Part shown: positions 1,641-60,635 of the stretch, piece after piece | Layout: each line of letters starts with the position of its first letter | How positions within the stretch are numbered: position 1 is the first letter of the stretch | IMG/VR virus record: IMGVR_UViG_3300031087_000494 | DNA length: 64,000 nt | Strand: one strand, 5' to 3' | Origin: an uncultured virus (IMG/VR IMGVR_UViG_3300031087_000494) | Taxonomy: Duplodnaviria > Heunggongvirae > Uroviricota > Caudoviricetes | Made by a program: the position numbers and the translations under genes | Notes under the pieces: model-generated | The model's input: the letters and a program-made list of their open reading frames with translations, nothing else | Database searches by the model: none | Told to the model about the DNA's origin: nothing

Positions 1641-1648
1641 TTAGATAG
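1641..1648 (+). promoter_or_regulatory. TTAGA motif (putative phage-specific/late promoter element); further copies at 10748, 11934, 13166, 14758, 40643, 46225, 59911
   Basis: TTAGA 38-52 nt upstream of all eight HCCH-tag genes. Confidence 0.7.
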
Positions 1649-1686
1649 GCTCCTCTGAATCGATTTTCGAGAATGAGGAGCCTATC

Positions 1687-2454
1687 GTGGCATCAGGACA
1701 GATCCATGTGAATCCAGAGACGGGAGAGCCCGGTAAGTGCAGGGCCAACATCGCCTGCCCCTACGGCAAGGACGCTCCCCACTTTGAGCATGAGCGCGAT
1801 GCTCGACTCTACTTCGAGATCAAGATGGAGGATGGCGAAGAAGCCGGACGCAAGGTCTTCCGAGTCGTGGACGCTGGCCGGGCCTACCGTCGCGCGGAGG
1901 AGAAGATCGTCACTGCCGAGTACCAGAAGTCCCAGGGCAAGGACATGGATAACACCATCGCTGAACTCGAAAAGAAGCGAGATGATGCCCAGGCTGCCCT
2001 GGAGGCAGAGGGCCTCCGCCCTGAGCAAGTCGTGGATGGAGCAAAGGGCAAGCTCAAGGCTCTTAAGGATATCCGCAAGCTCGTCACTGAGGGGAAGCCA
2101 GCCTCAGAGAGCTACCTCGACCGTAAGGAAGATACCTGGAAGCAGCGCCTCGACAAGATCAACAGCACGGTCGACTCTTCAGACAGGGAAGCTCGAGCCC
2201 GGGCGCTCTTCAATCTCAAGCTCAGCATCATTCGAGAGCTTCCCACGAAGCGGATCTTGGAGCATGAGGGCATGAGCCGGGCTCTTGACAAGGACTTCCT
2301 TGCGGGTCGCGGTCAGCGTATCGCTCAGGCTATCCCCGGAATCGGCGAGGCGGCCGATAACCGAAAGGGCGCATCCGTAGACCCTGGAAAGCTCGGTGAG
2401 TTCAACCGGTCCGCTCTGGATCGCGCCGCTAGGTTCATCAGCAGTCTGAACTGA
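1687..2454 (+). CDS. HCCH-tag protein, helical/coiled-coil body of unknown function
   Basis: GAGGAG RBS, GTG start; N-term QIH-x10-C-x5-C-PYG-x4-HF. Confidence 0.8.
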   Translation: MASGQIHVNPETGEPGKCRANIACPYGKDAPHFEHERDARLYFEIKMEDGEEAGRKVFRVVDAGRAYRRAEEKIVTAEYQKSQGKDMDNTIAELEKKRDDAQAALEAEGLRPEQVVDGAKGKLKALKDIRKLVTEGKPASESYLDRKEDTWKQRLDKINSTVDSSDREARARALFNLKLSIIRELPTKRILEHEGMSRALDKDFLAGRGQRIAQAIPGIGEAADNRKGASVDPGKLGEFNRSALDRAARFISSLN

Positions 2455-2468
2455 ATTTCTCTACCCGG

Positions 2469-2497
2469 TTGACTCCCCGGGGATGAGGTTGTAGCAT
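2469..2497 (+). promoter_or_regulatory. SigA-type promoter
   Basis: TTGACT-17nt-TAGCAT. Confidence 0.7.
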
Positions 2498-2617
2498 TGC
2501 TCCTGCGGGAACACTGCGAAGGCCCATCCCCGGGGGAGCTTCTTTTGGGGATCGGTGAGCTTTCGACAGGCTGACCGCAGACCGTTCCGAGCTTCGAGCT
2601 CCAGAGAAGAGACCACC

Positions 2618-3184
2618 ATGAAGATCCCCTTCCTCAAGAACTTCCGGCGAGGCTTCGCCACCAACAGTTCCTCGAGCCACTCCTTCGTCTACATGAAGGA
2701 AGAGCAGGGCCTCGGCGACGAGACTCCCTCGACCTACATCGACAACGAGTTCGGCTGGAACGACTTCCGGCTCGACACCATCCGGGAGAAGCTCTTCTAT
2801 GTGCTCGTCGGCCGCATCGGCGGCGGCTGGGGCTCGGACCAGAGCACCGCCGAGGAGGACTTCGAGGAGCTCGGAGACCAGTTCCCCGAGCTCACCGAGC
2901 GGGACTTCGCTGCGGCCAAGCACGGCTACATCGACCACGAGTCCGTGGGCACCATCAGCGAGTCCGAGGCCCGGGATCCCCATGTGGTGGTCTTCGGCGG
3001 CAACGACAACGACGGTGACTCCCAGGAGCGCGTTGCTGCCATCCGGGCCGGTGAGATCGACTGGTCCAAGACCAAGATGGATGTGGATGACCTCGAGCAC
3101 CTCCGCATGGACGACGAGGACGGCCAGAAGGCCGCCCGGGAGTTCCTCAAGGAGAACCCCTGGGCTAAGCACTACCTCGGCTGA
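2618..3184 (+). CDS. Hypothetical phage protein (R.GFATNSSSSHS motif)
   Basis: Strong codon bias from ATG 2618; N-terminal NSSS motif typical of large-phage proteins. Confidence 0.75.
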   Translation: MKIPFLKNFRRGFATNSSSSHSFVYMKEEQGLGDETPSTYIDNEFGWNDFRLDTIREKLFYVLVGRIGGGWGSDQSTAEEDFEELGDQFPELTERDFAAAKHGYIDHESVGTISESEARDPHVVVFGGNDNDGDSQERVAAIRAGEIDWSKTKMDVDDLEHLRMDDEDGQKAAREFLKENPWAKHYLG

Positions 3185-3260
3185 TCCTGAGAACGGACTT
3201 CGAGTGGGCAGAATGGGCTCATTCTGAGGGGAGCCTGAGGGCTTAGAGCGCAGCCTGAGC

Positions 3261-3307
3261 GCGGGCGCTAGAGCGACACTATAGCCGATGCTCTAGCGCC
3301 CGTTTCT
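3261..3307 (+). terminator. Intrinsic terminator-like hairpin
   Basis: GCGGGCGCTAGAGC..GCTCTAGCGCCCGT followed by TTCT. Confidence 0.55.
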
Positions 3308-3391
3308 GCGTAGTGAGATGGTACTTTCTCAGGATAGGGCGGAGCTCATACACGATGCGCCAGAGGTCCTTTCGAGCGAAAAGTTGCGCCA

Positions 3392-3420
3392 TTGACGGGC
3401 TCTCTTCTACGGTGTATGGT
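3392..3420 (+). promoter_or_regulatory. SigA-type promoter, leaderless transcript
   Basis: TTGACG-17nt-TATGGT, ATG 6 nt downstream. Confidence 0.75.
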
Positions 3421-3426
3421 TGCTCC

Positions 3427-3498
3427 ATGGACACCATTTCCGAAGCTGACAGCAAGCTCGCTGCGGCCGCCGTCTTCCTAGCCGAAGGGAGCCTCTGA
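3427..3498 (+). CDS. Leaderless 23-aa uORF (MDTISEADSKLAAAAVFLAEGSL)
   Basis: ATG at predicted TSS; stop 1 nt before ATG 3500. Confidence 0.55.
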   Translation: MDTISEADSKLAAAAVFLAEGSL

Positions 3499-3499
3499 G

Positions 3500-4594
3500 A
3501 TGTACCTCCTTGAGAAGATCGCACCCGCTCCCAGGCCGAAGGCCGCCCGTCAGCTCAGCCCCCGTGAGCTCAAGCAGCTGGAGTTCCAGCAGAAGCTGTC
3601 CCTGCTCATCGAAGGTCGAGACCCAGCGGCCGATGCCTCCCTGGGGCTCAATTGGCGAGCTGAAGGCTTCCTCCGGGAGCTCAAGGGGAAGACCGTGGGG
3701 CTACCCTACGCGAACCACTACTACGGAAAGCCCGTGGACGGCCAGATGAAGCTCGACATGGCTCGGGCCATGGTGCTCGGCGAGCGCCGCTTCGTGTACT
3801 TCGACCGGCTCGCCCTGCGAGTCATCGAGAAGATCATCAACCGGGACAACACAGCTCCCAGGGTCTACTTCGAGGACAAGAGGCTCATCGACTGGCGATA
3901 CTTCAGCGAGAGCTACCTGGTTCCCTTCGGCAAAGCCGCCGATGTGATGATCCCCGAATCCACGGACACGCCTGAGCCCCTTCACTTCACTTTTCACGGC
4001 CAGAAGCCCATCCACATGACCCTGGAGATCACTTCGGCGGGCCAGGTCGCCATGTTTCAGCTCAGGAAGGGCTCGGCCTGGCGAAAGTACGCCGTGAGGC
4101 TCCGCGATGAGCTCAACGATGCGCTCAAGGACTACCGCCGCCGGGCTGGCTGGGTCCGAGAGTATCAGAATGCTCCAGTACGGCCGGGGCTCGACGCCGA
4201 ACAGCTCAAGGCCGTGAAGGTCGCTCTTGACCCCTTCTACTCGGTCAAGAGGGACTTCCACGAGCTCGCTCGGGGTAAGTTCTTCGAGGGCTCCCACATG
4301 GACCTCGGCGTGAAGTCTCGAGCCTACGCGATTCGCTGCAACAGCTGCCACTTTCCTCTCGGCCTCGAGATCGTCTCCGACTACAGCTTCCAGCAGAATG
4401 TGAGCTGGGACTCCAGCTCAATCACTCGGGAGCGCATCGAGGAGCGCAGGGTCAACCAGATCATCGGCAACTTCCACCGGGAGACGGGTTGCAGCCATGA
4501 GCTCGGCACCAGCGGCCGCACGGGATCGACTGTGGCTCCGGAGCGCAGCCCCGCCATCAACCCTCGCTCTCGTCACATCGCTCGCACTATCTAG
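3500..4594 (+). CDS. Paralog family A member 1, C-terminal CxxC..HxxxxC putative Zn site
   Basis: Shares YGK..K.D.ARA, ELN..DY.RR..W.REYQ.AP..PG, Y..RC..C and FHRE..C motifs with 4718 and 5839. Confidence 0.8.
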   Translation: MYLLEKIAPAPRPKAARQLSPRELKQLEFQQKLSLLIEGRDPAADASLGLNWRAEGFLRELKGKTVGLPYANHYYGKPVDGQMKLDMARAMVLGERRFVYFDRLALRVIEKIINRDNTAPRVYFEDKRLIDWRYFSESYLVPFGKAADVMIPESTDTPEPLHFTFHGQKPIHMTLEITSAGQVAMFQLRKGSAWRKYAVRLRDELNDALKDYRRRAGWVREYQNAPVRPGLDAEQLKAVKVALDPFYSVKRDFHELARGKFFEGSHMDLGVKSRAYAIRCNSCHFPLGLEIVSDYSFQQNVSWDSSSITRERIEERRVNQIIGNFHRETGCSHELGTSGRTGSTVAPERSPAINPRSRHIARTI

Positions 4595-4618
4595 CCGGGC
4601 GAAGCCGCCGGAGAGCTG

Positions 4619-4647
4619 TTGACAGGGCTGCACAAAGAGTATAGGAT
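4619..4647 (+). promoter_or_regulatory. SigA-type promoter, leaderless transcript
   Basis: TTGACA-17nt-TAGGAT, ATG 6 nt downstream. Confidence 0.8.
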
Positions 4648-4653
4648 CGACCC

Positions 4654-4716
4654 ATGATCTCCTTTCCCTCCCTCAGCGAATCTAGCTTCGCTGCAGCCAC
4701 CCTGAGGAAGAGCTGA
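4654..4716 (+). CDS. Leaderless 20-aa uORF (MISFPSLSESSFAAATLRKS)
   Basis: ATG at predicted TSS; stop 1 nt before ATG 4718. Confidence 0.55.
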   Translation: MISFPSLSESSFAAATLRKS

Positions 4717-4717
4717 C

Positions 4718-5839
4718 ATGTACCTACTTCGCAATCTCACCGAGAGGGAACGCATCTCTCAGGAGGTGGCCGAGCTCAAGATCCTGAGCGCACAGGCGCT
4801 CAAGGAAGCCACCGAGATGGCGGCGGCCCAGGAGAGGATCCAGGAAGAGGCGAAGCTTCGGCGCATGGATCACGGCTACGCGGACGGCAACGATCTTTCA
4901 GCTGCGGTCAAGGTCATGCGAGACGAGCTCCTCAGTGGCAGTGGGCGCTTCTACGCTGAGAACTTCTACGGAAAGGAGCTCAGCGCTGAACAGAAGCACG
5001 ATGTGGCCCGAGCCGTTTTGCTCACGCGGAGCTCCTGGTTCCCTGGTAGTCCTCTTGATCCCATCGCCAAGAGGCTCACTCGCCACACGCTTCTCAACTG
5101 CCCCGGCTTGAGCGGCAAGTGGACCGCCTTCGATGTGGACAGCCGGGCCAATGTGGACATCGACACGATCTTCAATCGCTCAGAGCACTTCGGTACGAAC
5201 AGCAACAGAAGCGTCGGCGACAGGACCTTTGAAGTCCATCCCGTGACCGTTCGGACCGAGAAGGGGCTGATCACCATCGACCTCCTCGTGGAACGCAGCA
5301 ACAAGAGCTTCCACTGGGCGCTCCGAGGCAAGTCCAAGCTCAGCAGCCGTGCGCGAAGGCTGGTCGGTGAGCTCAACTCCATCGCCGAAGACCAGGACCG
5401 GCGCACACAGTGGTTCAAGGACTACGAGGCCGCAGAGCCCCTCCCCGGGCTCAGCGCTGCCCAGCAGGAAGAGCTCCTCGCCGAGTTCGGCCTCTGGAAT
5501 GAGAGCATGCCGAAGACCCTCCCCGGAGCTCGCCCCGGCGTGCATCTCGAGGAGTGGTTCGCAAACAAGTCGGGCACTCAGGTCTATCCCGTGCGCTGCG
5601 AGCTCTGCTCCCGGGTAGCTGCCTACGAGATCGTTTACTGCGTCGGAGAGCTCATTCCCCAGTCGGAATTTCGGAAGGCGAAGTCCAAGCACATTCACCA
5701 CCGGGAGGATGTTGAACACAGCGTCAACAGCATGCTCAAGAGATTCCACCGGGAGGCCAACTGCTACTCGGTTCACGGTACGAGCTTCCGGACCGGCGAG
5801 CTCGTCTGCACCGACGATCTCGGAAGGCTGGTGAACTGA
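4718..5839 (+). CDS. Paralog family A member 2
   Basis: Motifs shared with 3500 and 5839. Confidence 0.8.
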   Translation: MYLLRNLTERERISQEVAELKILSAQALKEATEMAAAQERIQEEAKLRRMDHGYADGNDLSAAVKVMRDELLSGSGRFYAENFYGKELSAEQKHDVARAVLLTRSSWFPGSPLDPIAKRLTRHTLLNCPGLSGKWTAFDVDSRANVDIDTIFNRSEHFGTNSNRSVGDRTFEVHPVTVRTEKGLITIDLLVERSNKSFHWALRGKSKLSSRARRLVGELNSIAEDQDRRTQWFKDYEAAEPLPGLSAAQQEELLAEFGLWNESMPKTLPGARPGVHLEEWFANKSGTQVYPVRCELCSRVAAYEIVYCVGELIPQSEFRKAKSKHIHHREDVEHSVNSMLKRFHREANCYSVHGTSFRTGELVCTDDLGRLVN

Positions 5840-9772: not shown

Positions 9773-10723
9773 ATGGAAACGCTTCTCGAATCCCCGGTGG
9801 CATCGAAGACCTCCGCACAGTCCGCCGAGGACCTGGCAGTTCGTGCCTACTACCGACCTTCGCCTCGACAAAACTACTGGAATCGAAGCGCGAAGCCTAC
9901 CCGCTGGTGCTACAGCCGCAGCGAACAGGATATCATCCTCAACCTGGCAGCAACAGCCTCGAATTCGCTCTCCACCGTGGCAGTGAAAGACGAGGACAAG
10001 GACTGGTACAGCGAGGGTGGGTCCGTGGTTCGCCGCTTTGAGCTCGAGGACGGGACGGCCGGCTACTTCAAGCCCCTGCAGTCCAACAGTCGCTCGGAAT
10101 CTGATTTCCGAGACTACGGGATGAGCTCCCTGGCTGCCACCATCAGCGAGATCAACTCCTACCGCATGGCGCAGCTCCTCGGCGGGGAGTACGCTGAGCT
10201 CGTGCCCACCACTGCGCTTCGCCGCATCGCCGGTGAGACCGGAACGCTTCAGCTCGAGGTCGACGAGACCATGCACCTGCCCGAAGACGAGCTCATGGCC
10301 GACCACCGGCGAGCTGCTCTCTTCGATTTCATCATCGGTAACCTCGACCGCCACGGGAGTAACTTCCTCTACGGCGCTGACGCATCGGGCCGTCGGCGCA
10401 TCAAGCTCATCGACAACAGCTTTAGCTTCCCGGGGAGCAAGGGTGGCTACCTCCTCAACCAGAGCGTCTTCGGCGATAACATGCGGAAGATCGGCCCCAG
10501 CGGCACCGTCCACGAGATCCCCTTCGAGGAGCTGGAGCTCCGGGATGAGGAGGTCGCGCTCATCGGGAAGGCTCGAGTGGGAGTCGAGGGCTGGCTCGGG
10601 GCTAGGACCATCGGCATCGAGCGAGGCAAGGCTACTCTGCGACGCCTCGACCACCTCCTCAAGGTGGGGAAGCTCGGTGGAGTCTCCGACTACTTCGACG
10701 GGATCTCCAGCTACGACTACTGA
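9773..10723 (+). CDS. PI3/PI4-kinase-like (HipA-related) kinase 1, no HCCH tag
   Basis: GYFKP, SEINSY, FDFIIGNLDRHGSN, LIDNSFSF. Confidence 0.8.
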   Translation: METLLESPVASKTSAQSAEDLAVRAYYRPSPRQNYWNRSAKPTRWCYSRSEQDIILNLAATASNSLSTVAVKDEDKDWYSEGGSVVRRFELEDGTAGYFKPLQSNSRSESDFRDYGMSSLAATISEINSYRMAQLLGGEYAELVPTTALRRIAGETGTLQLEVDETMHLPEDELMADHRRAALFDFIIGNLDRHGSNFLYGADASGRRRIKLIDNSFSFPGSKGGYLLNQSVFGDNMRKIGPSGTVHEIPFEELELRDEEVALIGKARVGVEGWLGARTIGIERGKATLRRLDHLLKVGKLGGVSDYFDGISSYDY

Positions 10724-10789
10724 GCGGATCTCGTTACTGTGCCTTCGTTAGAGAAGCTCCTGTCTAGAACCTGAAAGCAGGAGCCTCCA

Positions 10790-11956
10790 GTGAGCACTCA
10801 GCGCTACCACATCGGTAAGAACGGTCCCGCGCCCTGCAACGCCCATCCCGAGCGACCCAACGGTAGAGCATGTCGCTTTGGAGAGGATCGCCACGGATCC
10901 CAGGCTGAGATGATCGAGCTCTGGGAATCAGAGCAGGAGGCCGACCACGGGAGCTTCCTCGGTGGCGTATCTCGAGCTTCAGCTGCGAACAGCCATGAGC
11001 GCAGCAGGATGCAGAAGATGCTCAGCGACCCCCTCAGGTACTACTCTGTGTCTGAGGATGGCTTCGAGTACAGCCAGGAGGATGTGTCCGTGGCCCTGAA
11101 CCTCGGCTCTCTGCCCCTGAGCAACTTCGCTGTCGGTCGAGTCAAGGATCGAGACCTGTCCTGGAAGGCCGGAGGGACCACGAGCGTTCAGCGCTACGAG
11201 CTCATGGATGGCTCCATCGGCTACTTCAAGAGCTTCCAGGAAAACAGCCGCTACGACGAGCACGAGTTCCGATCCTTCGGTACGAGCACTCTAGGTGCGG
11301 CCATCAACGAGGTCAATGCCCGACGAATGGCTCAGCTCCTCGGTTCGAGCTACGAGAAGCTCATTCCTGAGACAGTGCTGCGAGAGATCGACGGGGAGAT
11401 CGGGAGCTTCCAGCGGGAAGTGCCCGAATCGAGCGAGATGCCTCCCAACTTTCACCGGAGCGCAGAGCTTCGAGAGGACTACCGGAAGGCAGCGATCTTC
11501 GACTTCGTCATCGGGAACCTGGATCGCCATGACGCCAACTTCCTCTACAGCGATGTGGCCGAATCCGATGGATCGACCTCCAAGAGGATTCGGCTCATCG
11601 ACAACGCCTACAGCTTTCCAGCACCTTCGGATAAGCCCGTGGTCAATGACTCCATGTTCTCAGACAACGACGGAACCGATGGGGACTTCGAGCTCGATGA
11701 GAGCGGGGAAGAGGTAGAGTTCGAGGGCTACTTCATGGAGAACGACGAGTTCAAGCTCACTCCCGAAGAGCTCCAGGAGCTCAAGCGGGCCCGGAGAGGC
11801 GTTCGAGGCTGGATGCGCCAGGGCACCATCGCACAGGAGCGCGGGCAGGCCGTGGTCAACCGCATCGACAGGCTTACGACTGAAGGCAGAATGCTCTCCC
11901 TTCGGGACCACATCGACGAGCTCAACCGTACGATTAGAACTCCCTCCAGTAGCTAA
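10790..11956 (+). CDS. PI3/PI4-kinase-like kinase 2 with HCCH tag
   Basis: YHIGKNGPAPCNAHPERPNGRACRFG..H; FDFVIGNLDRHDAN, LIDN. Confidence 0.85.
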   Translation: MSTQRYHIGKNGPAPCNAHPERPNGRACRFGEDRHGSQAEMIELWESEQEADHGSFLGGVSRASAANSHERSRMQKMLSDPLRYYSVSEDGFEYSQEDVSVALNLGSLPLSNFAVGRVKDRDLSWKAGGTTSVQRYELMDGSIGYFKSFQENSRYDEHEFRSFGTSTLGAAINEVNARRMAQLLGSSYEKLIPETVLREIDGEIGSFQREVPESSEMPPNFHRSAELREDYRKAAIFDFVIGNLDRHDANFLYSDVAESDGSTSKRIRLIDNAYSFPAPSDKPVVNDSMFSDNDGTDGDFELDESGEEVEFEGYFMENDEFKLTPEELQELKRARRGVRGWMRQGTIAQERGQAVVNRIDRLTTEGRMLSLRDHIDELNRTIRTPSSS

Positions 11957-11972
11957 GAACTGGAGAATCACC

Positions 11973-13151
11973 TTGGGCGCACAGAAGTACCACATCGGCA
12001 AGAACGGGCCAGCTCCCTGTAACGCTCACCCCGAGCGTCCCAACGGTCGAGCCTGCCGCTTCGGTGCGGATGACCACGGCACCAGGGCTGAGGTCACCGA
12101 GCTCTGGGAGGCTCGTCAGACAGCTGAGAACGAGGCCTACCTCGAGAGCGCCAGCAAGAGCCTTGGAAGGCCACTGAGCTACGACGAGCGCAGCACTGTG
12201 AAGCACCTGAGCGACCGAACGAAGTACCGGCCGCCGAAGACGGTGGAGGCGCGCTACGGAAGCAGCGAGCAGGCGGTTGCCATGAAGCTTGCCCTGAGCA
12301 ATCTCAGCGAGCTCGCCCACAGCCCCATCGTGGGCAGGGACGATGACTGGGACAACCTCGGCTCCACATCCGTGGATCGCTACGAGCTCAAGAATGGCGC
12401 GGTGGGCTATTTCAAGGCCTTCTCGAACAACAGCTACGACGAGGGTTTCTTCAGGGGTAAGTACGGAGTGAGCTCCATCGGCGCATCCATCAACGAGGTC
12501 AATGCCTACCGTATGGGTCAGCTCCTCGGAGGCGAGTTCTCAAAGCTCGTGCCGGAGACAACTTTCCGGGAGGTCTACGGCCGGCTCGGAACCATCCAGC
12601 AGGAAGTTCCAGAGAACGAAGCCGTAAGCCGTAGCTTCACCGAGAGCTCACTCCTCAAGGATGACTACAAGCGAGCTGCCATCTTTGATTTCGTCATCGG
12701 CAATCTTGATCGTCACGGATTCAACTACCTCTACGGAGTCGAGGAGGGTCCAGATGGTGAACCCGTGAGTAGGTTGCGGCTCATCGACAACTCCTTCAGC
12801 TTTCCTGATCCCCAGAAAGCCTCCGCGGTCAATGCGAGCTCATTCTCGGATAACACTGGAGCAGGTGAAGGCAAGAGTACCTGGGCTCCTGAGTACGGCG
12901 CTCGGGCTGGCGAGCTCAAGCTCACCGAGGCTGATCGTGAAGCCCTGACTAGAGCTCGCGCTGGAGTGCGTGAGTGGATCGACGGAAAGACCATCGGTTC
13001 TCGGAGAGGCTTCGCCACCATCAGACGCATCGATCATCTGCTCGACAAGGGCGAAGTTCCCAACTTCTCCCAGTACCACTACAAGCACTACGCATCGCCA
13101 GACTGGTATGTGCCCGAGGAAGAGATCGAGGACGAGGGCTACTGGGACTAG
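11973..13151 (+). CDS. PI3/PI4-kinase-like kinase 3 with HCCH tag
   Basis: TTG start after GGAG; same tag and kinase motifs. Confidence 0.85.
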   Translation: MGAQKYHIGKNGPAPCNAHPERPNGRACRFGADDHGTRAEVTELWEARQTAENEAYLESASKSLGRPLSYDERSTVKHLSDRTKYRPPKTVEARYGSSEQAVAMKLALSNLSELAHSPIVGRDDDWDNLGSTSVDRYELKNGAVGYFKAFSNNSYDEGFFRGKYGVSSIGASINEVNAYRMGQLLGGEFSKLVPETTFREVYGRLGTIQQEVPENEAVSRSFTESSLLKDDYKRAAIFDFVIGNLDRHGFNYLYGVEEGPDGEPVSRLRLIDNSFSFPDPQKASAVNASSFSDNTGAGEGKSTWAPEYGARAGELKLTEADREALTRARAGVREWIDGKTIGSRRGFATIRRIDHLLDKGEVPNFSQYHYKHYASPDWYVPEEEIEDEGYWD

Positions 13152-13214: not shown

Positions 13215-14342
13215 TTGGGCGCACAGAAGTACCACATCGGGAAGAACGGCCCCGGCCCCTGCAACGCGCATCCCGAGCGGCCAAACGGTCGCGCCTGCCG
13301 ATTCGGTGAGGAGCTCCACGGCACCGAAGCTGAGATGTGGAAGCTCTGGGAGACCGAACAGGAAGAGCTCAACGGCGACCATCTCGCGGGTGCTCGCAAG
13401 GAAGATCCGGACATCGAGCTCCGCAACAGGGCAACCAACAGCCTCAGCGACCAGTCCAAGTACACTCCTCTCGCTAAGGCAGTGAGCTACAGCGACGAGG
13501 ATCGAGCCATCGCCATGAGGCTTGCGCTGAGCAACATCAGCAAGCTCTCCTACATGGAGATCCCCGGCGAGGATGAGAGCTGGCTCACCAACGGAATCAG
13601 CACGGTGCAGCGCTACGAGCTCGAGGATGGGAACTACGGCTACTTCAAGCCCTTCGGCGAGAACAGCTACCAGGAGAGCGAGTTCGCTAACTTCGGAACC
13701 AACACGCTCCAGGCTGCCATCAGTGAGGTCAATGCTCACAGGCTCTCTCGGGCCATGGGTCCGGGCTTCGACAAGCTGGTTCCCGAAACCGTGCTCAGAG
13801 AGATCGACGGAAAGCTCGGCTCCATCCAGCGAGAGGTCTATGAGGACGCTGACTCGCTTCGAAGCTTTGAGGAAGTGCCTGAACTTCGAGAGGACTTCAG
13901 GAAGGCAGCGATCTTCGACTTCGTTCTCGGGAACCTGGACCGCCACGATCAGAACATGCTCTTCGGAGCTGAGCCTGACCACAAGGGCGGCCTTCGAGAC
14001 CGCATTCGACTCATCGACAACTCCTTCGGATTTCCCGACCCAACTAGAGCCGTCCACTACAACTGGAGTATCTTCACCGAGAACAAACCTCTTCGCTCGG
14101 ATAGAACCGACTACTACAGCACAGGCTACAGGATTCCCGATGGCGAGCTTTCGCTCCAGAAAGATGAGCTGAAAGCACTGAAGAGCGCTCGGGCTGAAGT
14201 TCAGGGCTGGGTCGACTCGAGGACCATCGATGCAGACCGGGGCCAGGCTACGATGGAGCGCATCGACTACCTCCTCGAACAGGAGCGAATCTCACCCCTC
14301 AATGGCTACTTGCAGGATAGCGGTCAGACCGATCCGTTCTGA
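13215..14342 (+). CDS. PI3/PI4-kinase-like kinase 4 with HCCH tag
   Basis: TTG start after GGAG; same tag and kinase motifs. Confidence 0.85.
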   Translation: MGAQKYHIGKNGPGPCNAHPERPNGRACRFGEELHGTEAEMWKLWETEQEELNGDHLAGARKEDPDIELRNRATNSLSDQSKYTPLAKAVSYSDEDRAIAMRLALSNISKLSYMEIPGEDESWLTNGISTVQRYELEDGNYGYFKPFGENSYQESEFANFGTNTLQAAISEVNAHRLSRAMGPGFDKLVPETVLREIDGKLGSIQREVYEDADSLRSFEEVPELREDFRKAAIFDFVLGNLDRHDQNMLFGAEPDHKGGLRDRIRLIDNSFGFPDPTRAVHYNWSIFTENKPLRSDRTDYYSTGYRIPDGELSLQKDELKALKSARAEVQGWVDSRTIDADRGQATMERIDYLLEQERISPLNGYLQDSGQTDPF

Positions 14343-14678: not shown

Positions 14679-14795
14679 CGCTATGTGGGGCGCCTAGAGC
14701 TGATCCTACTGCCGCTGAGCACCATCTCCTCCCCTGCAACCACCCGGAAGTTCGGCGTTAGAAACGAGCGCAGAGCAACTCGGAGGAGACCCACC

Positions 14796-17639
14796 ATGGC
14801 AAAGGGCCGGCAGCACATCAACGATGACGGCAACATCACACAATGCAGTGTGACCGTCGGCACATGCCCCTTCGAGGCTCGAGGTCACTACGACACTCGA
14901 GAGGAAGCTGAGGCCGCCTACGCCGACCAGCAGGAGCACGGCCCAGTGGGATCGAGCTTCCGCAGGGCTCGCAGCCCCAAGACCGCAGGATTCAGCCTCG
15001 AGGAAGGAGGCTACTACGGAGAAATGAAGCCCCGCTCCATCCAGATCGACGCCCTCAATGAGACCGCCAACGCCCTCCTCGAGGACGGCAACACTCAGCT
15101 CGTGGCCGCCTGTGGAACCGGCAAGTCCTACATGGGCCGTCAGCTCATGCGTCGGATGATGGATGAGGAGGATGCCAACGGTGTGGCCATCGTGCTCACA
15201 TCTTCCCGGAAGCTCGCCGTGGACACCGCGGCCGACCTTCGTCCCGATGCCAATGGGGAATACGACAGGGCCATCGGCGACTACGGCAAGGACTACGAGG
15301 TCGAGGTCATCGAGATCCACTCGGACTCTAAGGATGGCATCAAGGTAGACGGAGCTGTTTCACCTGAGCGCATCGCCGAACGCTGGAAAGCAGCCCTGGA
15401 CGAGGGCAAGCGAGTCGTCATCGTCTCTACCTACCAGTCTTCGGACAAGGTTCAGCAGGTGCAGGCGCTCATCGGTGAGCGCGCCGAAGCCGATCTCCTC
15501 ATGAACGACGAGGCCCACAACATCCTAGGCCAGAAGAAGTCGGTGAGCTCCGATGAGAACGCCGAGAACTCAGGCTACCGGAGCTTCGTCAACGAGATCC
15601 CCGGTGCCATCCAGGCTAAGCACCGGCTCTACGCCACCGCTACTCCTCCCCTAGCTGACTCTCCCGACGACGACGAGACATCCGCCAAGGGTGAGACCCG
15701 GGAGGAGCAGATCGAAGCTCTCCAGGCCCAGGTCGCCAAGATGAGCACAAACGGCAAGGAGCGCCTCACGGTCTACTCAGACGATGAGAAGATCCTCGGC
15801 CGGGTCAGTGGAGCCATCACCCAGCAGGCTGCGATTTCAGAGGGCTACCTCACGAAGCCCGAGTACCAGCTTCGTTCGGCGGTTGTTCGCGGACAGGCCA
15901 CCGACGCCAATGGATTCGTTGACGCTGGAGGAAACTACACCACTGCCCCGACAGACCCCCAGGGCCCGCGCACGCTCACTGCTCAGACCTACAGCGCCGT
16001 GAGCGCTACGCTGCAGGCCATGACAGCAGACCCCGTCAGGGATGAGGATGGAAAGCTCCGCAACCCCGTCCACAACGCTCTCGCCTACACGGGCTCCATC
16101 GACCAGGCTCGGGCCTTCCGGGACAACTTCCGAGAGGTTGCCATCGAGCAGAGTGGCCGCATGGATCTTGAGACCGCAACGGCCAATCAGAACGCCTCTG
16201 ACCCGGAGCTTCGCCGAAGAGCACGGCTTCGGCTCATCGCCGAGCACGGTGAGGCCGTCGCTGCCTACTCGGGAGAGACCAGAGAGGCCAAGGATGGCCG
16301 CGCCAAGGCGTTCTCCATGTTCAAGGGCAGGGACTACACCGAGCAGGATGCTCAGGGCGGCTGGTCGCCCCACAAGAAGGTGCTCGCCAATGTGGACATC
16401 TTCTCAGAGGGCATCTCCATCAACGAGATCGACACGGTGGTGATCTCTGACCAGTCCAAGACATCCGAGCGAGCCATGACTCAGGCCATCGGCCGATCCC
16501 TGAGGACAGTCGGTGGCAACACGCAGAAGAACACCGGCCATGTCATCATCCCGCAGGTGGTCAGCGAGGACGGGAAGGAGCTCAACGGTGGCTTCATCAC
16601 CGCCGCGAGCTACGGAGCAACCCGGGTAGAGCGCGCAGTGTCCACGAGGAAGCTTAAGGGTGAGGCAGTTCCTGCTGATGAGACCACCACTGTGGCCCAC
16701 TACGATGCGACCGGCAAGCTCGTGGACAGGAAGCTCGCCGCCGACATTTCCAGGACCCATGTGGACTCCTCCGCTAAGCTCCTCGCCGCTCAGGCCATCG
16801 AGCGCGCAGATCAGGCGATTCGATCCGCAACGGGCCTGGGCAAGGCAGAGGCAGATCGCTATAAGAAGGCATCGAAGCTCGAGCAGGCAGCCATGCAGAA
16901 GAGCTTCATCGCAAAGCGCGCAGATGAGGGCAGGGATCCGAGCTGGGGCGTTGCCCACGACGCTCTCCAGAGCGTACCCAGCTCCGACATGGCCACGGTA
17001 CGCCAGGCAGGTCGTGTCGTGACAGCCGCCCTCAGCGCCAGAGACTTCAGCGCGGTTCCGACCTCAGTCACCGACGGGCTCTCCCGGGCCGGCATCATCC
17101 GCCGGGCGGGAGGCATCGGAGACGGCCCCACGAAGGCAGAGCGCCGGGAGCTCGCCCTGAGCGCCTCTCAGGCCATGGCGGGCGCCTTCGTGCTACAGGG
17201 TGGCCAGGAAGAGCACCCGGACATCCACGCCGTGCTCTCCCAGGGTGTCAGCACCAAGGAAGCAGTGTTCTACATGAACACCGGCGGCAAGAGGGGCAGC
17301 AAGGCAGACTACGATAGGCTCGTAAACAACTACGAGAGCCTCGTGGGCAGGAGCGATGACGCCATGGAGAGAATCTACGGTGCCATCGAGAACTCCAAGA
17401 GCGCCACAAAGGTGCCCAGCGCAAGCCTCGCGGGCATCTTGAGCCAGAGGGCGGGTGCAACGGGACCAGCGAAGGCTGAGGTCTTCGACAGGCTCTCCGC
17501 GCTGCAGGAAACCGCAGCCCAGAGAGCTTCTGAGGCAGCAGCCTCAGGAAGTGCTGGCTACGAGCTCGACTCCTCGATGGTGTCCCGCAACGGAACCCTG
17601 AAGGTTCCCGCCCAGAAGAAGCTCGCCGAGCTCATCTGA
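14796..17639 (+). CDS. SF2 helicase/ATPase (ResIII / Type ISP-like) with HCCH tag
   Basis: GGAGGAG RBS; AACGTGKS, STYQS, DEAHN, ATATP, FSEGISI, QAIGRSLR. Confidence 0.85.
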   Translation: MAKGRQHINDDGNITQCSVTVGTCPFEARGHYDTREEAEAAYADQQEHGPVGSSFRRARSPKTAGFSLEEGGYYGEMKPRSIQIDALNETANALLEDGNTQLVAACGTGKSYMGRQLMRRMMDEEDANGVAIVLTSSRKLAVDTAADLRPDANGEYDRAIGDYGKDYEVEVIEIHSDSKDGIKVDGAVSPERIAERWKAALDEGKRVVIVSTYQSSDKVQQVQALIGERAEADLLMNDEAHNILGQKKSVSSDENAENSGYRSFVNEIPGAIQAKHRLYATATPPLADSPDDDETSAKGETREEQIEALQAQVAKMSTNGKERLTVYSDDEKILGRVSGAITQQAAISEGYLTKPEYQLRSAVVRGQATDANGFVDAGGNYTTAPTDPQGPRTLTAQTYSAVSATLQAMTADPVRDEDGKLRNPVHNALAYTGSIDQARAFRDNFREVAIEQSGRMDLETATANQNASDPELRRRARLRLIAEHGEAVAAYSGETREAKDGRAKAFSMFKGRDYTEQDAQGGWSPHKKVLANVDIFSEGISINEIDTVVISDQSKTSERAMTQAIGRSLRTVGGNTQKNTGHVIIPQVVSEDGKELNGGFITAASYGATRVERAVSTRKLKGEAVPADETTTVAHYDATGKLVDRKLAADISRTHVDSSAKLLAAQAIERADQAIRSATGLGKAEADRYKKASKLEQAAMQKSFIAKRADEGRDPSWGVAHDALQSVPSSDMATVRQAGRVVTAALSARDFSAVPTSVTDGLSRAGIIRRAGGIGDGPTKAERRELALSASQAMAGAFVLQGGQEEHPDIHAVLSQGVSTKEAVFYMNTGGKRGSKADYDRLVNNYESLVGRSDDAMERIYGAIENSKSATKVPSASLAGILSQRAGATGPAKAEVFDRLSALQETAAQRASEAAASGSAGYELDSSMVSRNGTLKVPAQKKLAELI

Positions 17640-18900: not shown

Positions 18901-18956
18901 GGTTCTCTTCCTTACTTTGTCGGATGGATCTTCTGAGTGAACGGCTGTTGCCGTCG

Positions 18957-19029
18957 TGCCTTCGACGGGACTCGAACCCGCAACCTGGAGTTTTAGAGGC
19001 TCTCGCTCTACCAATTGAGCTACAAAGGC
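18957..19029 (-). tRNA. tRNA with CUA anticodon (amber suppressor), CCA not encoded
   Basis: Cloverleaf GCCTTTG/CGAAGGC-A, D-arm GCTC/GAGC, loop CT-CTA-AA, T-arm GCGGG-TTCGAGT-CCCGT. Confidence 0.85.
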
Positions 19030-40630: not shown

Positions 40631-40694
40631 GCCCGGTCTGCGTTAGATAGCTCCATAGATAGCATGCTGAAACTGATCGCAGGGAGCTGATCCA

Positions 40695-41990
40695 GTGGCC
40701 ACACAGTACCACCTCACACCCGAGGGTCCTCGGAAGTGCTCCGTAGACCCCTCGAAGCCCAACAGCCGCGGCTGCAAGTACGACAGCATGCACTTCGACA
40801 ACTTCGAAGACGCCATGGATGTCTACAGCGAGGAGCTCGAGGCGGCCTTCGGCAAGTTCTCCGTGCTCGTGCGCCCCTCCGCAAAGGAGAGAGCGCGACG
40901 CATCGGCTACCGAGGCCTCGACGGCATCGAGCGCGTCCAGGCAAGCCCCCAGGTCAAGGCGGCAGTCGCTACCCTCAAGACCATCGGCTCTAAGGCCCGG
41001 GAAGCAGTCGCCGAAATCCGTGGCCACTACAGCGAGGGAGCCCAGCCCGTCAACCGGCCCGCCAGCCTCCCCGAGACGCTGGAGACAGCTCCTCTCAGCG
41101 AGCTCCCTGCGGAGGATCAGGCCGCAGAGGCCAACAGCGAAGAGACCTTCAGCTCCGGCAGGGAGGAGAGCCTCCAGGACTTCGCCAGCAGGATCCTCTC
41201 GAACCGCAGTGGCTCGAGCTTCACTCTCACTCCGGTGGATGGAAGCGCTCGAGAAGAGGCCCTCGCCCGGCTCGAGGAGTTCGAGAACAACCGCAGCGAG
41301 AAGGCTAAGCCTCAGCCCTCCAAGGCCCAGATCAGGCGCTCCGCCAAGAGCCGAAAGGCAGCCCTCGCAAAGGCTCGAGTTCGCAGCGCTGTGAGTGCTG
41401 GCAAGGAGCGCACGGCCCGTGTGCTCATCGACTCTGGCTACACGGTTCGTGCATCTGCAGCAGCAGCCCGGGACACCGCCAGGCTCAAGGCCCAGAGCGC
41501 AAGGGTTCGAGCCGGAGCCGCGGCTCGCATCGTTCAGCAGCGCGCAGCTCGCATGAGCGTTCCCGCAGCCCACATCCGACCCGGAGACACCTTCGATGGC
41601 ACAACGGTGAGGGCAGTCGAGGCCGTTGCCCCCGGCAAGATCAAGATCAGCTACCAGGCAGAGGCCAACGGCCCCGTGCTCTCGGCCACCGTTCCCAGCG
41701 ACCGGTCCATGCGCGTGGATCGCAAGACCCGCAGGGAGGCTCGTAACAGCCGGATCTCCTCGAGGATCGCTACCCCCATCGGTAAGACTCGTACGCTTTC
41801 CAGCAAGGTGCTGAAGTCCTCCAGGGAGCAGCTCTCGGGGCTCGACGCGCTCCTTGCCCGGGATGCTCGCTTCGGAGCAGTTGCCCGGGAGATCCGTCAG
41901 TCCGAGCGTAAGCAGAACCAGCTCGCAATCATCGATAGGCTGCGAGCGATCCGCACTGAGAATCCCGAGAGAGTTCTTCAGGATAGCTGA
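40695..41990 (+). CDS. HCCH-tag protein with basic Ala/Arg-rich body
   Basis: QYH-LTPEGPRK-C-x11-C-KYDSM-HF. Confidence 0.8.
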   Translation: MATQYHLTPEGPRKCSVDPSKPNSRGCKYDSMHFDNFEDAMDVYSEELEAAFGKFSVLVRPSAKERARRIGYRGLDGIERVQASPQVKAAVATLKTIGSKAREAVAEIRGHYSEGAQPVNRPASLPETLETAPLSELPAEDQAAEANSEETFSSGREESLQDFASRILSNRSGSSFTLTPVDGSAREEALARLEEFENNRSEKAKPQPSKAQIRRSAKSRKAALAKARVRSAVSAGKERTARVLIDSGYTVRASAAAARDTARLKAQSARVRAGAAARIVQQRAARMSVPAAHIRPGDTFDGTTVRAVEAVAPGKIKISYQAEANGPVLSATVPSDRSMRVDRKTRREARNSRISSRIATPIGKTRTLSSKVLKSSREQLSGLDALLARDARFGAVAREIRQSERKQNQLAIIDRLRAIRTENPERVLQDS

Positions 41991-46192: not shown

Positions 46193-46269
46193 CCCATCGC
46201 TTCCTAGAGGTAGCTACTCCTCGTTTAGATAGGAGTCCCATCGGACCCCACTAACAGAGGAAAGCACTG

Positions 46270-46992
46270 ATGGCAAAGTTCCACATCCGCGAAGACGGCG
46301 TAGCTCGTCGCTGCTGGGCGCAGCCCGGTAATTGCCCCGTGAACCGTGGAGAGGATGGCACTGAAGCACCTCACTACGCTTCAAAGGATGAGGCCAATTT
46401 GGCCTACGAGAAGAAGATGGAAGACAAGCTCATCCATGGGGCAGTTCAGAAGGACGGCACTCGTAAGCACCCCATGGCTGACATCCCTGACCTGGGAACT
46501 CGAGAGAACTCCCCGGCGGTAAGGCTCACCATGGAGGCTGTGGATTCGGTTTCCGACGAGACCCTGGAGCGCTGGAGGAATCTGGACCAGAACGCTCCTG
46601 AGCACAGGATCGCGAAGAACATCGATGACTACAGGGCAGGAAGCTACACCGAGGGAGTTCTTACCAATCTCGCCAGTAACAGTGGTACCGTAGCCTACGC
46701 CTACGCCGATAAGGACCTCAAGGCCCTGGCGAAGGAGAAGGTAGAGCTCGAAGCGGCGGAAGAGATCAACGCACTTCACGATAGGATCACCAGTAGGAAC
46801 AGGGAGATCCTCGCTGAGTCGGGGGTCGATACCTACGACGGCTTCAAGGTCAATGACTTCGGACTCGAGAAGGTTGAAGTCGATCCTAAGCGCAAGGCTG
46901 AAGTCGAGAGTGAGATGGCCCGTATCTCCCAGGATCTTCCCGTACTCAAGAAGCTCCACGAGGCATGGAGCGCACCAAACAGCATGAGCTAG
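46270..46992 (+). CDS. HCCH-tag protein of unknown function
   Basis: KFH-IREDGVARR-C-WAQPGN-C-P-x11-HY. Confidence 0.8.
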   Translation: MAKFHIREDGVARRCWAQPGNCPVNRGEDGTEAPHYASKDEANLAYEKKMEDKLIHGAVQKDGTRKHPMADIPDLGTRENSPAVRLTMEAVDSVSDETLERWRNLDQNAPEHRIAKNIDDYRAGSYTEGVLTNLASNSGTVAYAYADKDLKALAKEKVELEAAEEINALHDRITSRNREILAESGVDTYDGFKVNDFGLEKVEVDPKRKAEVESEMARISQDLPVLKKLHEAWSAPNSMS

Positions 46993-58063: not shown

Positions 58064-58096
58064 AGCGCCATAAGTTTCAGGTCGCTAGAGCCATCA

Positions 58097-58141
58097 AAGG
58101 CCGGCACACCCTGTGAAAATGGTGTGCCGGCCTTCGCTTTT
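58097..58141 (+). terminator. Terminator hairpin
   Basis: 14-bp inverted repeat AAGGCCGGCACACC/GGTGTGCCGGCCTT then CGCTTTT. Confidence 0.65.
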
Positions 58142-58208
58142 CCCGCTACTTTCGGCACCATAGACTGACAGCAGACTATCTTCAACCCAGCAACTAAGGA
58201 TCAGAAAA

Positions 58209-58793
58209 GTGCTCCAGTACTCCCCCGACAAGTTCCAGTGGCTCATGCTCACTGACTCAAGCCCCATCGGCTTCCTTCTCCTCATCCTCGGCCTCGCGCT
58301 CCTCGTGAAGATGGCAGTCACGGCCTACAGGAAGAAGGACGACCGGTCCAACTACCTCAAGTTCGGCATCCCCGGCATCGTTCTGGTGGCCATCGGGGTC
58401 TTCCTTCCGAGCTTCGCCAGCACCGCTCCTCTTGCGGAGGGCGTGGCCAAGAACCTCTCCTCCACCGCGAACTTCAAGGATGTGAAGCTCCTCCATCTGG
58501 AGACAGTTTCGGACACTCCTTTCACCGAGGGCTCCGTGGTCTTCGTGGGTACCGCCACCGATGTGGACGGCGACCCTCGACAGTTCCGCTACACCCAGTA
58601 CGCTGACTTCGGCATCTACGACATCGTGGGCTTCGATAAGCCCGCCGTGGACCTCAAGGACCAGAGCTACCAGGACCTCGAGGACGGCCTCGACAGCCGC
58701 AAGGATGACCTCAGCGCCAGTGAGTCGCCGAAGCCCAGCCAGAGCTCCAGGAGCACCTCGACTCCGACGCCCTCAGCAACTCCCAAGTCCTGA
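58209..58793 (+). CDS. Membrane protein with Ser/Thr/Pro tail
   Basis: 2 TM segments. Confidence 0.7.
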   Translation: MLQYSPDKFQWLMLTDSSPIGFLLLILGLALLVKMAVTAYRKKDDRSNYLKFGIPGIVLVAIGVFLPSFASTAPLAEGVAKNLSSTANFKDVKLLHLETVSDTPFTEGSVVFVGTATDVDGDPRQFRYTQYADFGIYDIVGFDKPAVDLKDQSYQDLEDGLDSRKDDLSASESPKPSQSSRSTSTPTPSATPKS

Positions 58794-58837
58794 GCATCGG
58801 ATCCTAGCGGACTCTTGAGCACACAGAAGGAGAGCCC

Positions 58838-59896
58838 GTGGTTCAGAACCTCATAGCAGTGGCGCTCATCGCCCTGGGAGCGACCTTCGCCCTCTGGCCG
58901 GTGCCACTGCGAAAGATCAGCACCTTCTTCGACACGCTGATCCACGAGGCTGGCCACGGGCTCTCCTCTCTTCCCTTCGGAGCTCCACTGCCCTCGATCA
59001 CTGTTCGGAAGAACACTTCGGGCGAGACCCAGTCCGCCATGGGCTACCTCCACCAGTTCCTTCCCCTGGGCCTGGGAGTGCTCACCGAGAAGATCGCGCG
59101 CTTCTTGAGCCTCATGGCCGGCTACAGTGCGAGCCTCATTCTAGCAGCATTCCTCCTCGTGCTGATTCCTCTCAGAGAGATCCACCTCGAGCCCTGGGTG
59201 CTGCTCCTCATTGCTCAGATCGCTCTAGCAACGCTCCTCTGGACGCTGGTACGGGTCACAGAGAGCCCGCTGACCTTCCTGGCCGTGGCGGCTGGCTTCA
59301 CCTTCATCTACCTCCTGCTCTTCTCCTGGAACTGGCTGATCTACGGTGGAGTGATCCTGGGAGCTGTCGTGCTCTTCTTCCTTGCGAGGAGCCTTCTGGC
59401 TACGCTGGCAGTGGCCCTCACCGTCACCGCTCCTCTGGTGCCCATCGCTGAGCTCACCGTGCTCCAGGGAACCGCCCTGGGGAAGCTCATCGAACCCCTG
59501 GGGCTAACGGTGGACATCGCGCTCTTCTCTCGGGTGCTCTTCGGGGCGCTCCTGCTCTTCCTGGCGCTCTGCTGCAGGAGCTGGCTGAGCTTCGGGCTCA
59601 CGGCGCTGATCCTGGGCTCCGTGTTCGGGCTGCTCTTCGTTCCGGGATTGCCCGTGGCCTTCGTGTTCGCCTTCGTGGCTGGGATGCTCACGGTTGCAGG
59701 CGTTCGCAGCCTGATGGAGCTCCATCGGATCACCTTCAGCGCTACGGCGTCCCACTGGCAGAGCGAACGAGTTGCCACGGACATGGTCTTCGCAGCTGAA
59801 GAAATCGGTGGCGATCCTCGCTACTGGTACTGGGCCCAATGCTTCGTAGCTGGAGTTGGATTCCTTGGTATCGTCGTTTTTGGCTACTTCCTCTAG
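58838..59896 (+). CDS. M50B-like intramembrane metallopeptidase
   Basis: TLIHEAGH, SGET, AGY, TD motif, many TM segments. Confidence 0.8.
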   Translation: MVQNLIAVALIALGATFALWPVPLRKISTFFDTLIHEAGHGLSSLPFGAPLPSITVRKNTSGETQSAMGYLHQFLPLGLGVLTEKIARFLSLMAGYSASLILAAFLLVLIPLREIHLEPWVLLLIAQIALATLLWTLVRVTESPLTFLAVAAGFTFIYLLLFSWNWLIYGGVILGAVVLFFLARSLLATLAVALTVTAPLVPIAELTVLQGTALGKLIEPLGLTVDIALFSRVLFGALLLFLALCCRSWLSFGLTALILGSVFGLLFVPGLPVAFVFAFVAGMLTVAGVRSLMELHRITFSATASHWQSERVATDMVFAAEEIGGDPRYWYWAQCFVAGVGFLGIVVFGYFL

Positions 59897-59960
59897 GTTC
59901 TGTTGACTCATTAGAACTCCTCTCAGTCAAGAGCAGTAATCAAGCGGCAAGGAGCACAGA

Positions 59961-60635
59961 ATGGCCAAGGGACAGCTACACTCGACCGGAACGGTCTGCA
60001 GGGCAGAGATTCGCTGCCCCATCGAGGACGAGGGTGGTCAGCACTTCGATTCAGTCGATGAGCTCGTGGAGCACACGGCAACGCAGACGGGCACCGATGC
60101 CTCTGAGCTTCGAGGCGTGCTCGCAACCGGAGTCAGTACCGCTGAAGCTGTTTCGATGGCTAGAGAGGGAGTTCTCGGCAGCGGTACCCCTCAGTCCGTA
60201 TCCCGGGAGCCTCTGAAGCCCGCTCAGGTAAAGGAGCTCGACCAGTTCGATCCAGCTGTCCACAGCGTGTTCTCCAACGCTGCTGCTCGGACCGATCCCA
60301 ATGTGGCCGCTCGAGCACTCAAGAAGGAAGTTGCCAACGGCGAATGGATGGGCTCGCTCTCCGACGAGCATGCAGACCTCGTGGACTCCAATGCAGATCC
60401 CGACTACATCGAGGAAGATCGAGCAAAGGTAGTAGAGTACGGGGATAGGCAAAAGGCATCCGAGGCTCGACAGGCTGCGATGGCCAAGGAGATGCTCTGG
60501 CTTGCTGACAGCGCTCCCAGCTACAAGGCCCGGCTTCCCAAGGGCGCCCACGGACTCCTTCAGCGTGTTCAGGGCTATGACCACTCAGGCATCTCCATCG
60601 GCACGGTGAGGAAGGCACCTGCAGCCAAGGGCTAG
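59961..60635 (+). CDS. HCCH-tag protein of unknown function
   Basis: GQLH-STGTV-C-RAEIR-C-PIEDEGGQ-HF. Confidence 0.8.
   Translation: MAKGQLHSTGTVCRAEIRCPIEDEGGQHFDSVDELVEHTATQTGTDASELRGVLATGVSTAEAVSMAREGVLGSGTPQSVSREPLKPAQVKELDQFDPAVHSVFSNAAARTDPNVAARALKKEVANGEWMGSLSDEHADLVDSNADPDYIEEDRAKVVEYGDRQKASEARQAAMAKEMLWLADSAPSYKARLPKGAHGLLQRVQGYDHSGISIGTVRKAPAAKG

Follow-up and report, generated by a model that had tools for sequence, protein, structure and literature searches.

Why should proteins with unrelated bodies begin with one and the same small domain? The question is raised by a 64,000-nucleotide stretch of DNA filed as an uncultured virus (IMG/VR IMGVR_UViG_3300031087_000494), called here, in its full length, the window. 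Eight of its genes start with a His-Cys-Cys-His (H-C-C-H) module followed by a helix, termed the tag. A first-pass annotation of the sequence read the tag as a portable zinc-binding label on a phage-specific, probably late regulon, which could load effectors into the capsid. All eight open reading frames exist with the starts it proposed, and each carries the module. The tag is real, has no name in the libraries searched, and is much wider spread than the window alone indicates. The idea of delivery is retained here; the vehicle is likely a conjugation channel rather than a capsid, and the most likely role of the tag would be to single out proteins that pass into the next cell when cells mate.

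Within the window, a hidden Markov model built from 151 tags matches exactly the eight tagged genes among the 79 genes called (our own calls; 8 tagged, 71 untagged). The spacings between the H-C-C-H ligands are 10/5/7, 8/11/6 (three kinases), 9/6/6, 8/11/5, 9/6/12, and 5/5/8. Because the three tagged kinases are paralogues, the window holds about six independent cases. Of the bodies named by the first-pass annotation, the helicase of gene 14796 (genes are designated by their first position) is borne out by a ResIII match with an E-value of 3.7e-14, and the kinase assignments go back to weak, below-cut-off Pfam matches to PI3_PI4_kinase.

Beyond the window, a profile of its eight tags matches 4,129 clusters at 50% identity (E<=1e-3; 1.84 billion proteins searched). 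The consensus of 28 tags reads MAKYHINxxGxPGxCxAxxGNCPFGxxxxHYxSxEEARxAYE, and the first His lies inside residues 1-10 in 139 of 142 new top matches. Behind this constant start, the 140 comparable bodies (of 149 proteins given) fall into 111 BLAST-unrelated groups, and a Pfam match of any kind is present in 8 of 143 top tag-profile matches. Bodies that can be named include Nudix, RlaP, RNase T, YqaJ, LRV/HEAT, kinase, RNA ligase, ADP-ribosyltransferase, polyA-polymerase/CCA enzyme, Zeta, PARP-like, Toprim, and non-specific endonuclease. Among 22 tagged kinases the four H-C-C-H ligands are invariant, and the tag is more conserved than the kinase domain. A membrane helix occurs in none of 47 tagged proteins (192/949 other proteins). 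RNA ligase, polyA-polymerase/CCA enzyme, and kinase bodies are found in tagged and untagged versions in different elements, and the helicase orthologue P0041 bears the tag type of gene 40695. The same body with and without the tag, together with a helicase wearing another gene's tag type, indicates that the tag is portable.

The tag of ~45 residues is probably a beta-hairpin plus a helix, closed by one zinc ion through the H-C-C-H ligands. An AlphaFold model gives two short strands and a helix with a predicted local distance difference test score of 81; zinc binding would follow from the ligand residues. Of the first-pass reading, the portable label at the N-terminus of varied soluble cargo stands, its zinc-binding character being a prediction from those ligands. 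The zinc part is close to neutral (+0.45); the helix, at -1.9, is acidic. In a comparison that took in classical C2H2/CCHH zinc fingers and the Kunitz fold, no sequence in the PDB matches the tag, and a fold search yields nothing exceeding background, the best match, a Kunitz domain (VIA Z 4.5, root-mean-square deviation 2.4 over 39 residues), lying within it. PHROGs, Pfam, and NCBIfam likewise contain no model of the tag. The ESM Atlas returns no usable match for the window tag; with the tagged protein P0065 it returns only unnamed clusters (0.81-0.82) and DUF8081 (0.77), which serve as leads only. Membership in the classical XVIPCD or BID families was considered and rejected, as the tag is N-terminal and has no Pfam match to either. 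Full-text literature searches, in which sequences are not searchable and most subscription journals lie outside, find no paper on the tag.

In what kind of DNA does the tag occur? DNA-pattern scans give 16 IMG/VR records, 14 of them with true tags; tags are also present in Nesterenkonia alba, Nocardioides Root140, and two metagenome-assembled genomes, and one top tag match is annotated in Schaalia suimastitidis. Pattern matches L003, L007, and several in GTDB proved to be chance occurrences without a tag (co-occurrence counts exclude L007 and retain L003 as a control). The annotated tag-bearing records are elements of 200-420 kb that encode VirB4, VirB6-like proteins, and a relaxase and bring a replisome and SMC/ParA of their own. 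Those analyzed are G001 (unique part ~327 kb), G002 (325 kb, circular), G003, G006, G007, and G019 (420 kb, circular). The transfer genes of G001 include a VirD4/TraD-like coupling protein, a split TcpF-like VirB4, TcpE, three VirB6-like proteins, and a lysozyme; G001 also has a replication-relaxation protein of MobC type, Tad ATPases with pilins, a complete replisome, and a sigma factor resembling RpoD (annotation scan of 179 proteins, nearly all from 201 of at least 140 residues). The transfer core recurs in G002, G006, G007, and G019. A VirD4-type coupling-protein profile matches 11 of the 14 tag-bearing IMG/VR records, including all seven rated at least 90% complete, four of which were in the profile itself; the three misses are fragments of 16-89 kb. 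The single untagged record searched gives no match to this profile.

Virion genes were sought in the same elements. Terminase_6N, the only terminase family tried, matches 0/15 records; Phage_portal PF04860, the only portal family tried, matches 0/12; and 116 G001 and 148 G002 proteins contain no PHROG head or connector match, only lytic-domain matches. None of 47 further window proteins could be named as a virion gene. Searched against PLSDB and INPHARED at the thresholds applied, core proteins of the elements gave no match. Judged by gene content, the tag-bearing complete elements are giant conjugative plasmid-like elements, not phages; the phage setting and capsid loading are not supported, and what these elements carry instead is a Gram-positive type IV conjugation system with a relaxase.

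The pentamer TTAGA, lying 38-52 nucleotides upstream of each tagged start in the window, is a second shared trait. The plus strand of the window has 15 TTAGA sites. Within positions -70 to -8, the motif precedes 8/8 tagged and 2/71 untagged genes (Fisher p=1.7e-9, the best among 5,120 k-mers tried), and it precedes none of the 47 untagged genes that have an upstream gap of at least 40 nucleotides. The untagged kinase paralogue 9773 has neither tag nor motif, as is also the case for its orthologues in L104 and L108. The start of this control gene may be leaderless, in keeping with a TAGGTT hexamer 7 nucleotides upstream of its ATG. The link of motif to tag holds in the window, where TTAGA is far from equally common before untagged genes, and recurs in G001 (10/14 tagged vs 20/351 others), G003 (5/5 vs 2/85), and G019 (3/5 vs 33/381). 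Including divergent tags, several of which were first spotted among motif-bearing genes, the G019 count is 7/11 vs 32/363. Close relatives give 22/29 vs 6/139, as non-independent orthologues. Enrichment is absent from G006 (0/3), G002 (1/11 vs 74/383), and G007 (2/9 vs 49/272).

In low-GC elements TTAGA is replaced by GATAT, which precedes 9/11 tagged genes vs 77/383 others in G002 and 8/12 vs 75/269 in G007. GATAT also stands before transfer genes in G001 (12/25 vs 43/326), G002 (8/12 vs 70/371), and G019 (10/16 vs 78/365). TTAGA is enriched before transfer and pilus genes in G001 only (9/25 vs 20/326), and in G003 it is also found upstream of dnaB. The motif begins as little as 14 nucleotides before the ATG in G001 and G003, and no conserved -35 element is present across 45 TTAGA sites, as expected for a -10-type element. 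Of the proposed regulon, a motif-linked and element-specific set of genes is thus suggested by the upstream sequences; the "late" phage timing is not supported.

Some tagged genes also carry hairpins over the Shine-Dalgarno (SD) sequence. In four window genes a stem of 7-12 bp covers it, with the 5' arm starting 3-10 nucleotides after the first T of the motif (Table 1). When the RNA is cut at +12, a point chosen on the window itself, the start region is freed by a median of 4.8 vs 0.7 kcal/mol (8 vs 49 control genes, p=0.019). The same release test gives p=0.03 in G001 and p=0.09 in close relatives.

The source contig of the window is 346,375 bp long, and the window is 61% GC with relatives of actinobacterial type. 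Orthologues of its tagged helicase 14796, themselves tagged, lie beside an SbcC-CpaF core in G003 (48% identity) and in L109/L110 (50-51%), and another, with a divergent tag, is found in the complete conjugative element G019 (36% over 847 residues). For the L110 helicase and for a CpaF alike, the contig recorded is 683,316 bp long, presumably one and the same. The closest match of the ParB-like gene 33751 is in G019, near the transfer core. Close IMG/VR relatives of the window were not found with the kinase, helicase, 46270, and radical-SAM queries, nor did two tags and the helicase match any of 50,697 INPHARED phage records; PLSDB also gave no match. We infer that the window comes from the variable part of a giant element of at least 346 kb, Inocle-like and able to transmit itself, whose host is an actinobacterium.

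Inocles are plasmid-like elements of giant size, up to 395 kb, from oral Streptococcus, described as encoding VirB4, VirD4, a Replic_Relax (PF13814) marker, Pol III, gyrase, an RpoS-like sigma factor, a bifunctional transglycosylase, and an S26 peptidase (Kiguchi et al. 2025, PMC12340149). G001, a giant chromosome-free replicon, has VirB4/VirD4, Pol III, gyrase, a sigma factor, a transglycosylase, and an S26 peptidase, most of them orthologous in G002; its relaxase-like gene matches NCBIfam MobC, and the G002 orthologue matches PF13814. That domain occupies residues 298-368 of 587 in G002, whereas it is N-terminal in InoC, a protein of 454 residues (PMC12340149). The relaxase-like proteins here are longer (566-680 residues) with a long acidic N-terminal part, and the elements range over 29-61% GC with actinobacteria among their hosts, the window at 61% GC not being oral Streptococcus. 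The accessible portion of the Inocle paper mentions no N-terminal tag (PMC12340149). The gene set of the tag elements matches the description of Inocles, of which they are candidate members.

What, then, does the tag do on such an element? At a probability of roughly 0.55, we favor the reading that it is a portable signal by which accessory proteins are sent via the conjugation machine to the recipient, in the manner of the BID and XVIPCD domains. The BID domain of Bartonella is a C-terminal type IV translocation signal. The XVIPCD of Xanthomonas effectors is likewise C-terminal, ~120 residues long, and read by the X-T4SS of a Gram-negative bacterium (PMC8740702). The likeness would lie in a constant domain on diverse effector bodies, read for type IV translocation; the tag differs from XVIPCD in being N-terminal, ~45 residues long, built on Cys/His ligands, and found in elements of monoderm hosts. 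As with such signals, the constant domain sits on many unrelated soluble bodies, and a type IV secretion system (T4SS) with a coupling protein is co-encoded in 11/14 tag-bearing records. A constant domain on unrelated soluble enzymes, conjugation as the sole recognizable delivery device, and the motif sharing in low-GC elements together point to a type IV address.

Transfer of proteins along with conjugating DNA has precedents. The F-like plasmid pED208 co-transfers SSB, PsiB, and ParB2 to the recipient (PMC8406263), and the primases RP4 TraC1 and R64 SogL, ArdC, and polyvalent proteins are conjugatively transferred (PMC5512222). In these systems accessory proteins pass the conjugation channel to protect and start the element in the recipient, and the cargo classes overlap with those here (primase-like proteins, SF2 helicase, ADP-ribosyltransferase, nucleases, anti-defence functions) (PMC5512222). 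The portions of these papers at hand describe no common swappable signal domain (PMC8406263, PMC5512222). Polyvalent proteins combine many domains in a single chain; the cargo described here comes as separate genes, each tagged and preceded by its own motif.

The favored mechanism of transfer would run as follows. The tag would act as a swappable N-terminal label on kinases, a helicase, nucleases, primase-like proteins, Zeta, ADP-ribosyltransferase, and RNA-repair and tRNA enzymes. A sigma factor encoded by the element may read TTAGA, or GATAT in low-GC elements, so that tagged proteins are made in the donor, and the SD-covering hairpin of some genes may in part silence read-through RNA. Type IV machinery would recognize the tag by way of the coupling protein, VirB4, or an adaptor, or via the relaxosome. 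Cargo would then enter the recipient along with the DNA, disarm its defences, and start replication. More tentative, and slightly short of an even bet, is the broader proposal of a widespread, largely uncatalogued superfamily of giant Inocle-like conjugative elements in Actinobacteria and Firmicutes that uses one N-terminal zinc domain as a universal type IV address, driven by sigma-factor promoters, for more than 4,000 effector clusters. If true, the tag would be a portable protein-delivery signal for Gram-positive conjugation, a swappable kind of transfer signal not described in the literature found. It would also serve as a marker, at the level of sequence, of thousands of candidate anti-defence or takeover proteins, most without a known family, and of a class of giant elements filed as viruses by IMG/VR, by which the Inocle type would reach beyond oral Streptococcus.

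Several observations weigh against transfer through the conjugation machine. The signals compared, XVIPCD and BID, sit C-terminally, and the relaxases of the elements bear no tag. Tagged genes of G006 show neither TTAGA nor GATAT upstream. TTAGA is not enriched at the transfer genes of G019 (2/16) or G003 (0/4), where GATAT is found, and with such separate motifs the actinobacterial elements would not have to express cargo and channel together. The hairpin effect is modest, and gene 40695 runs the opposite way. The window shares only 3-7 of its 79 genes with G001, G002, G003, and G007, and 4 with G019; two homologue searches gave no core gene assignable to the source contig, so the link from window to transfer genes runs via orthologues and not via its own contig. 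Nesterenkonia alba has 5 tags and no match to the coupling-protein and VirB6-like queries used. Many records are near-identical gut elements, and the counts are therefore not independent. Modelled together, the G002 coupling-protein domain and a G002 tag scored 0.00, with the controls unfolded, which is evidence neither way.

The strongest competitor, though an unlikely one, is that the tag docks proteins inside the resident cell on a partner of the element or on nucleic acid (replisome, partition complex, nucleoid, sigma factor/RNA polymerase), with no transfer at all. Small beta-beta-alpha zinc modules often bind nucleic acids or proteins, the elements own a replisome and SMC/ParA to dock on, TTAGA also precedes dnaB in G003, and the transfer genes of G019 and G003 are on another motif. 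The nuclease, Zeta, and ADP-ribosyltransferase cargo, however, fits targets in a new cell better, the near-neutral zinc part and acidic helix are unlike a plain DNA binder, and the strict N-terminal placement suits a targeting signal. The same cargo, with its PARP-like, endonuclease, and kinase bodies behind a constant N-terminal domain, could instead be weapons sent by the T4SS against rival cells or elements in the manner of a polymorphic toxin system, for which XVIPCD provides a precedent (PMC8740702). This is improbable: among the bodies are several enzymes of repair or replication (RNA ligase, CCA enzyme, primase-like), and no regular immunity gene follows the tagged genes of the window, the neighbors tested having no Pfam match. 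Mechanistically it would be a sub-case of conjugative transfer, with the proteins acting as weapons and not as escorts of the DNA. Less probable again is that the tag serves as a degron or a stability switch, responsive to metal or redox state, and so sets when the cargo acts; the nearly invariant H-C-C-H ligands, the N-terminal position, and the lack of a sequence or fold match pointing to another role would agree with it, and it would leave unexplained why the tag was found in a single class of elements proficient in transfer.

Capsid targeting in a jumbo phage with a late promoter is the least probable of the four. Phage T4 has a capsid-targeting sequence, a short N-terminal peptide label on diverse cargo, and the tag resembles it in position and in variety of cargo. 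In IMG/VR the relatives are filed as viruses, the closest Atlas clusters bear viral labels, the tRNA arrays and RNA-repair genes are phage-like, and 280 kb of the source contig lie outside the window. The prohead-protease motifs are [IL]xE for the T4 type and [SAG]xE for the phiKZ type; neither is enriched behind the tag (27/141 vs 28/132 and 27/141 vs 37/132 control windows, respectively). The SD hairpins resemble, in part, the control of T4 gene e and I-TevI, where a late promoter starts within the SD-covering hairpin (PMC3014915). Tag elements nevertheless differ from T4 in having a full conjugation set in place of any virion gene found, no enriched cleavage motif behind the tag, no match among the phage records, and, where T4 uses a short peptide, a folded domain with Cys/His ligands.

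Table 1. Tagged genes, upstream motifs, and hairpins of the window
Positions	Strand	Feature
1641..1645	+	TTAGA before 1687, candidate -10-like promoter element
1644..1686	+	12-bp hairpin over SD, 5' arm starting at motif; arms 1644-1655/1675-1686
1687..2454	+	Tagged protein, 255 aa (amino acids); tag ~1687-1827; body without name
9773..10723	+	Untagged kinase paralogue, no TTAGA, internal control
10748..10752	+	TTAGA before 10790
10748..10784	+	TTAGA with 8-bp SD-covering stem, 10756-10763 with 10777-10784, gene 10790
10790..11956	+	Tagged kinase-like protein, 388 aa; tag ~10790-10939
11934..11938	+	TTAGA before 11973
11934..11965	+	TTAGA with 7-bp SD-covering stem, 11944-11950 with 11959-11965, gene 11973
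11973..13151	+	Tagged kinase-like protein, 392 aa
13166..13170	+	TTAGA before 13215; clear SD hairpin absent
13215..14342	+	Tagged kinase-like protein, 375 aa
14725..14789	+	Anti-SD arm 14725-14732, upstream of TTAGA, pairs SD 14782-14789, gene 14796
14758..14762	+	TTAGA before 14796
14796..17639	+	Tagged SF2 (ResIII-type) helicase, 947 aa
33751..35682	+	Untagged ParB-like/SAP protein, GATAT upstream; marker of element type
40643..40647	+	TTAGA before 40695
40643..40689	+	TTAGA with 7-bp stem, 40648-40654 with 40683-40689, gene 40695
40695..41990	+	Tagged protein, 431 aa; body without name
46225..46229	+	TTAGA before 46270
46270..46992	+	Tagged protein, 240 aa; body without name
59911..59915	+	TTAGA before 59961
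59961..60635	+	Tagged protein, 224 aa, with a short variant of the tag; body without name

The window has other features besides the tagged genes. Positions 22511-53389 hold a dense set of RNA- and NAD-repair genes (NADAR, Sir2, Macro, RNA ligase, kinase, HAD_SAK_2, SLOG, and metallophosphoesterases). Positions 3500-7029 encode three related proteins with an MY[LF]L start, C-terminal CxxC motifs, and no Pfam match, a family expanded in L108. A tRNA with a CTA (amber) anticodon is predicted by ARAGORN at 18956-19029 on the minus strand. Its anticodon-stem mismatches, together with the TAG that ends 26 of the 79 window genes, make recoding unlikely, and it could act weakly as a suppressor or be decayed.

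The wider set of elements shows further peculiarities. VirB4 (TcpF-like) is split into distant N- and C-terminal genes in G001 (L042:8856-10238 and L053:11083-12108) and likewise in G002, G006, G007, G009, and G019. A 428-residue core protein (L043:10811-12094 in G001), kept in G001, G002, G006, G007, and G019, has sigma region-2-like words by eye and no Pfam or NCBIfam match, and is a candidate second sigma factor. The G001 record of 437 kb is mirrored over ~110 kb at each end, which is either an inverted repeat of great length at the termini or an artefact of assembly. Arrays of tRNA genes number 48 in G001, 27 in G002, and 27 in G007. The contigs that carry the core CpaF homologues P0218, P0221, P0223, P0243, and P0306 measure 570-830 kb, and the element class may thus include members close to a megabase. 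At the other extreme, three tagged genes of Nocardioides sp. Root140 (L017) adjoin a relaxase homologue and a core-gene homologue in DNA that is otherwise chromosome-like, possibly a small integrated relative.

A second N-terminal tag, ~H.EPP..GA.WVE.YER.GV.VSGYWRG, is found on 12 diverse proteins of G019 (L158-L178; for example L161:3730-4110, minus strand), with no informative Pfam match in the six tested. TTAGA precedes 6/12 of their genes vs 32/363 others (p=4e-4), which suggests that the second tag shares its promoter motif with the first.

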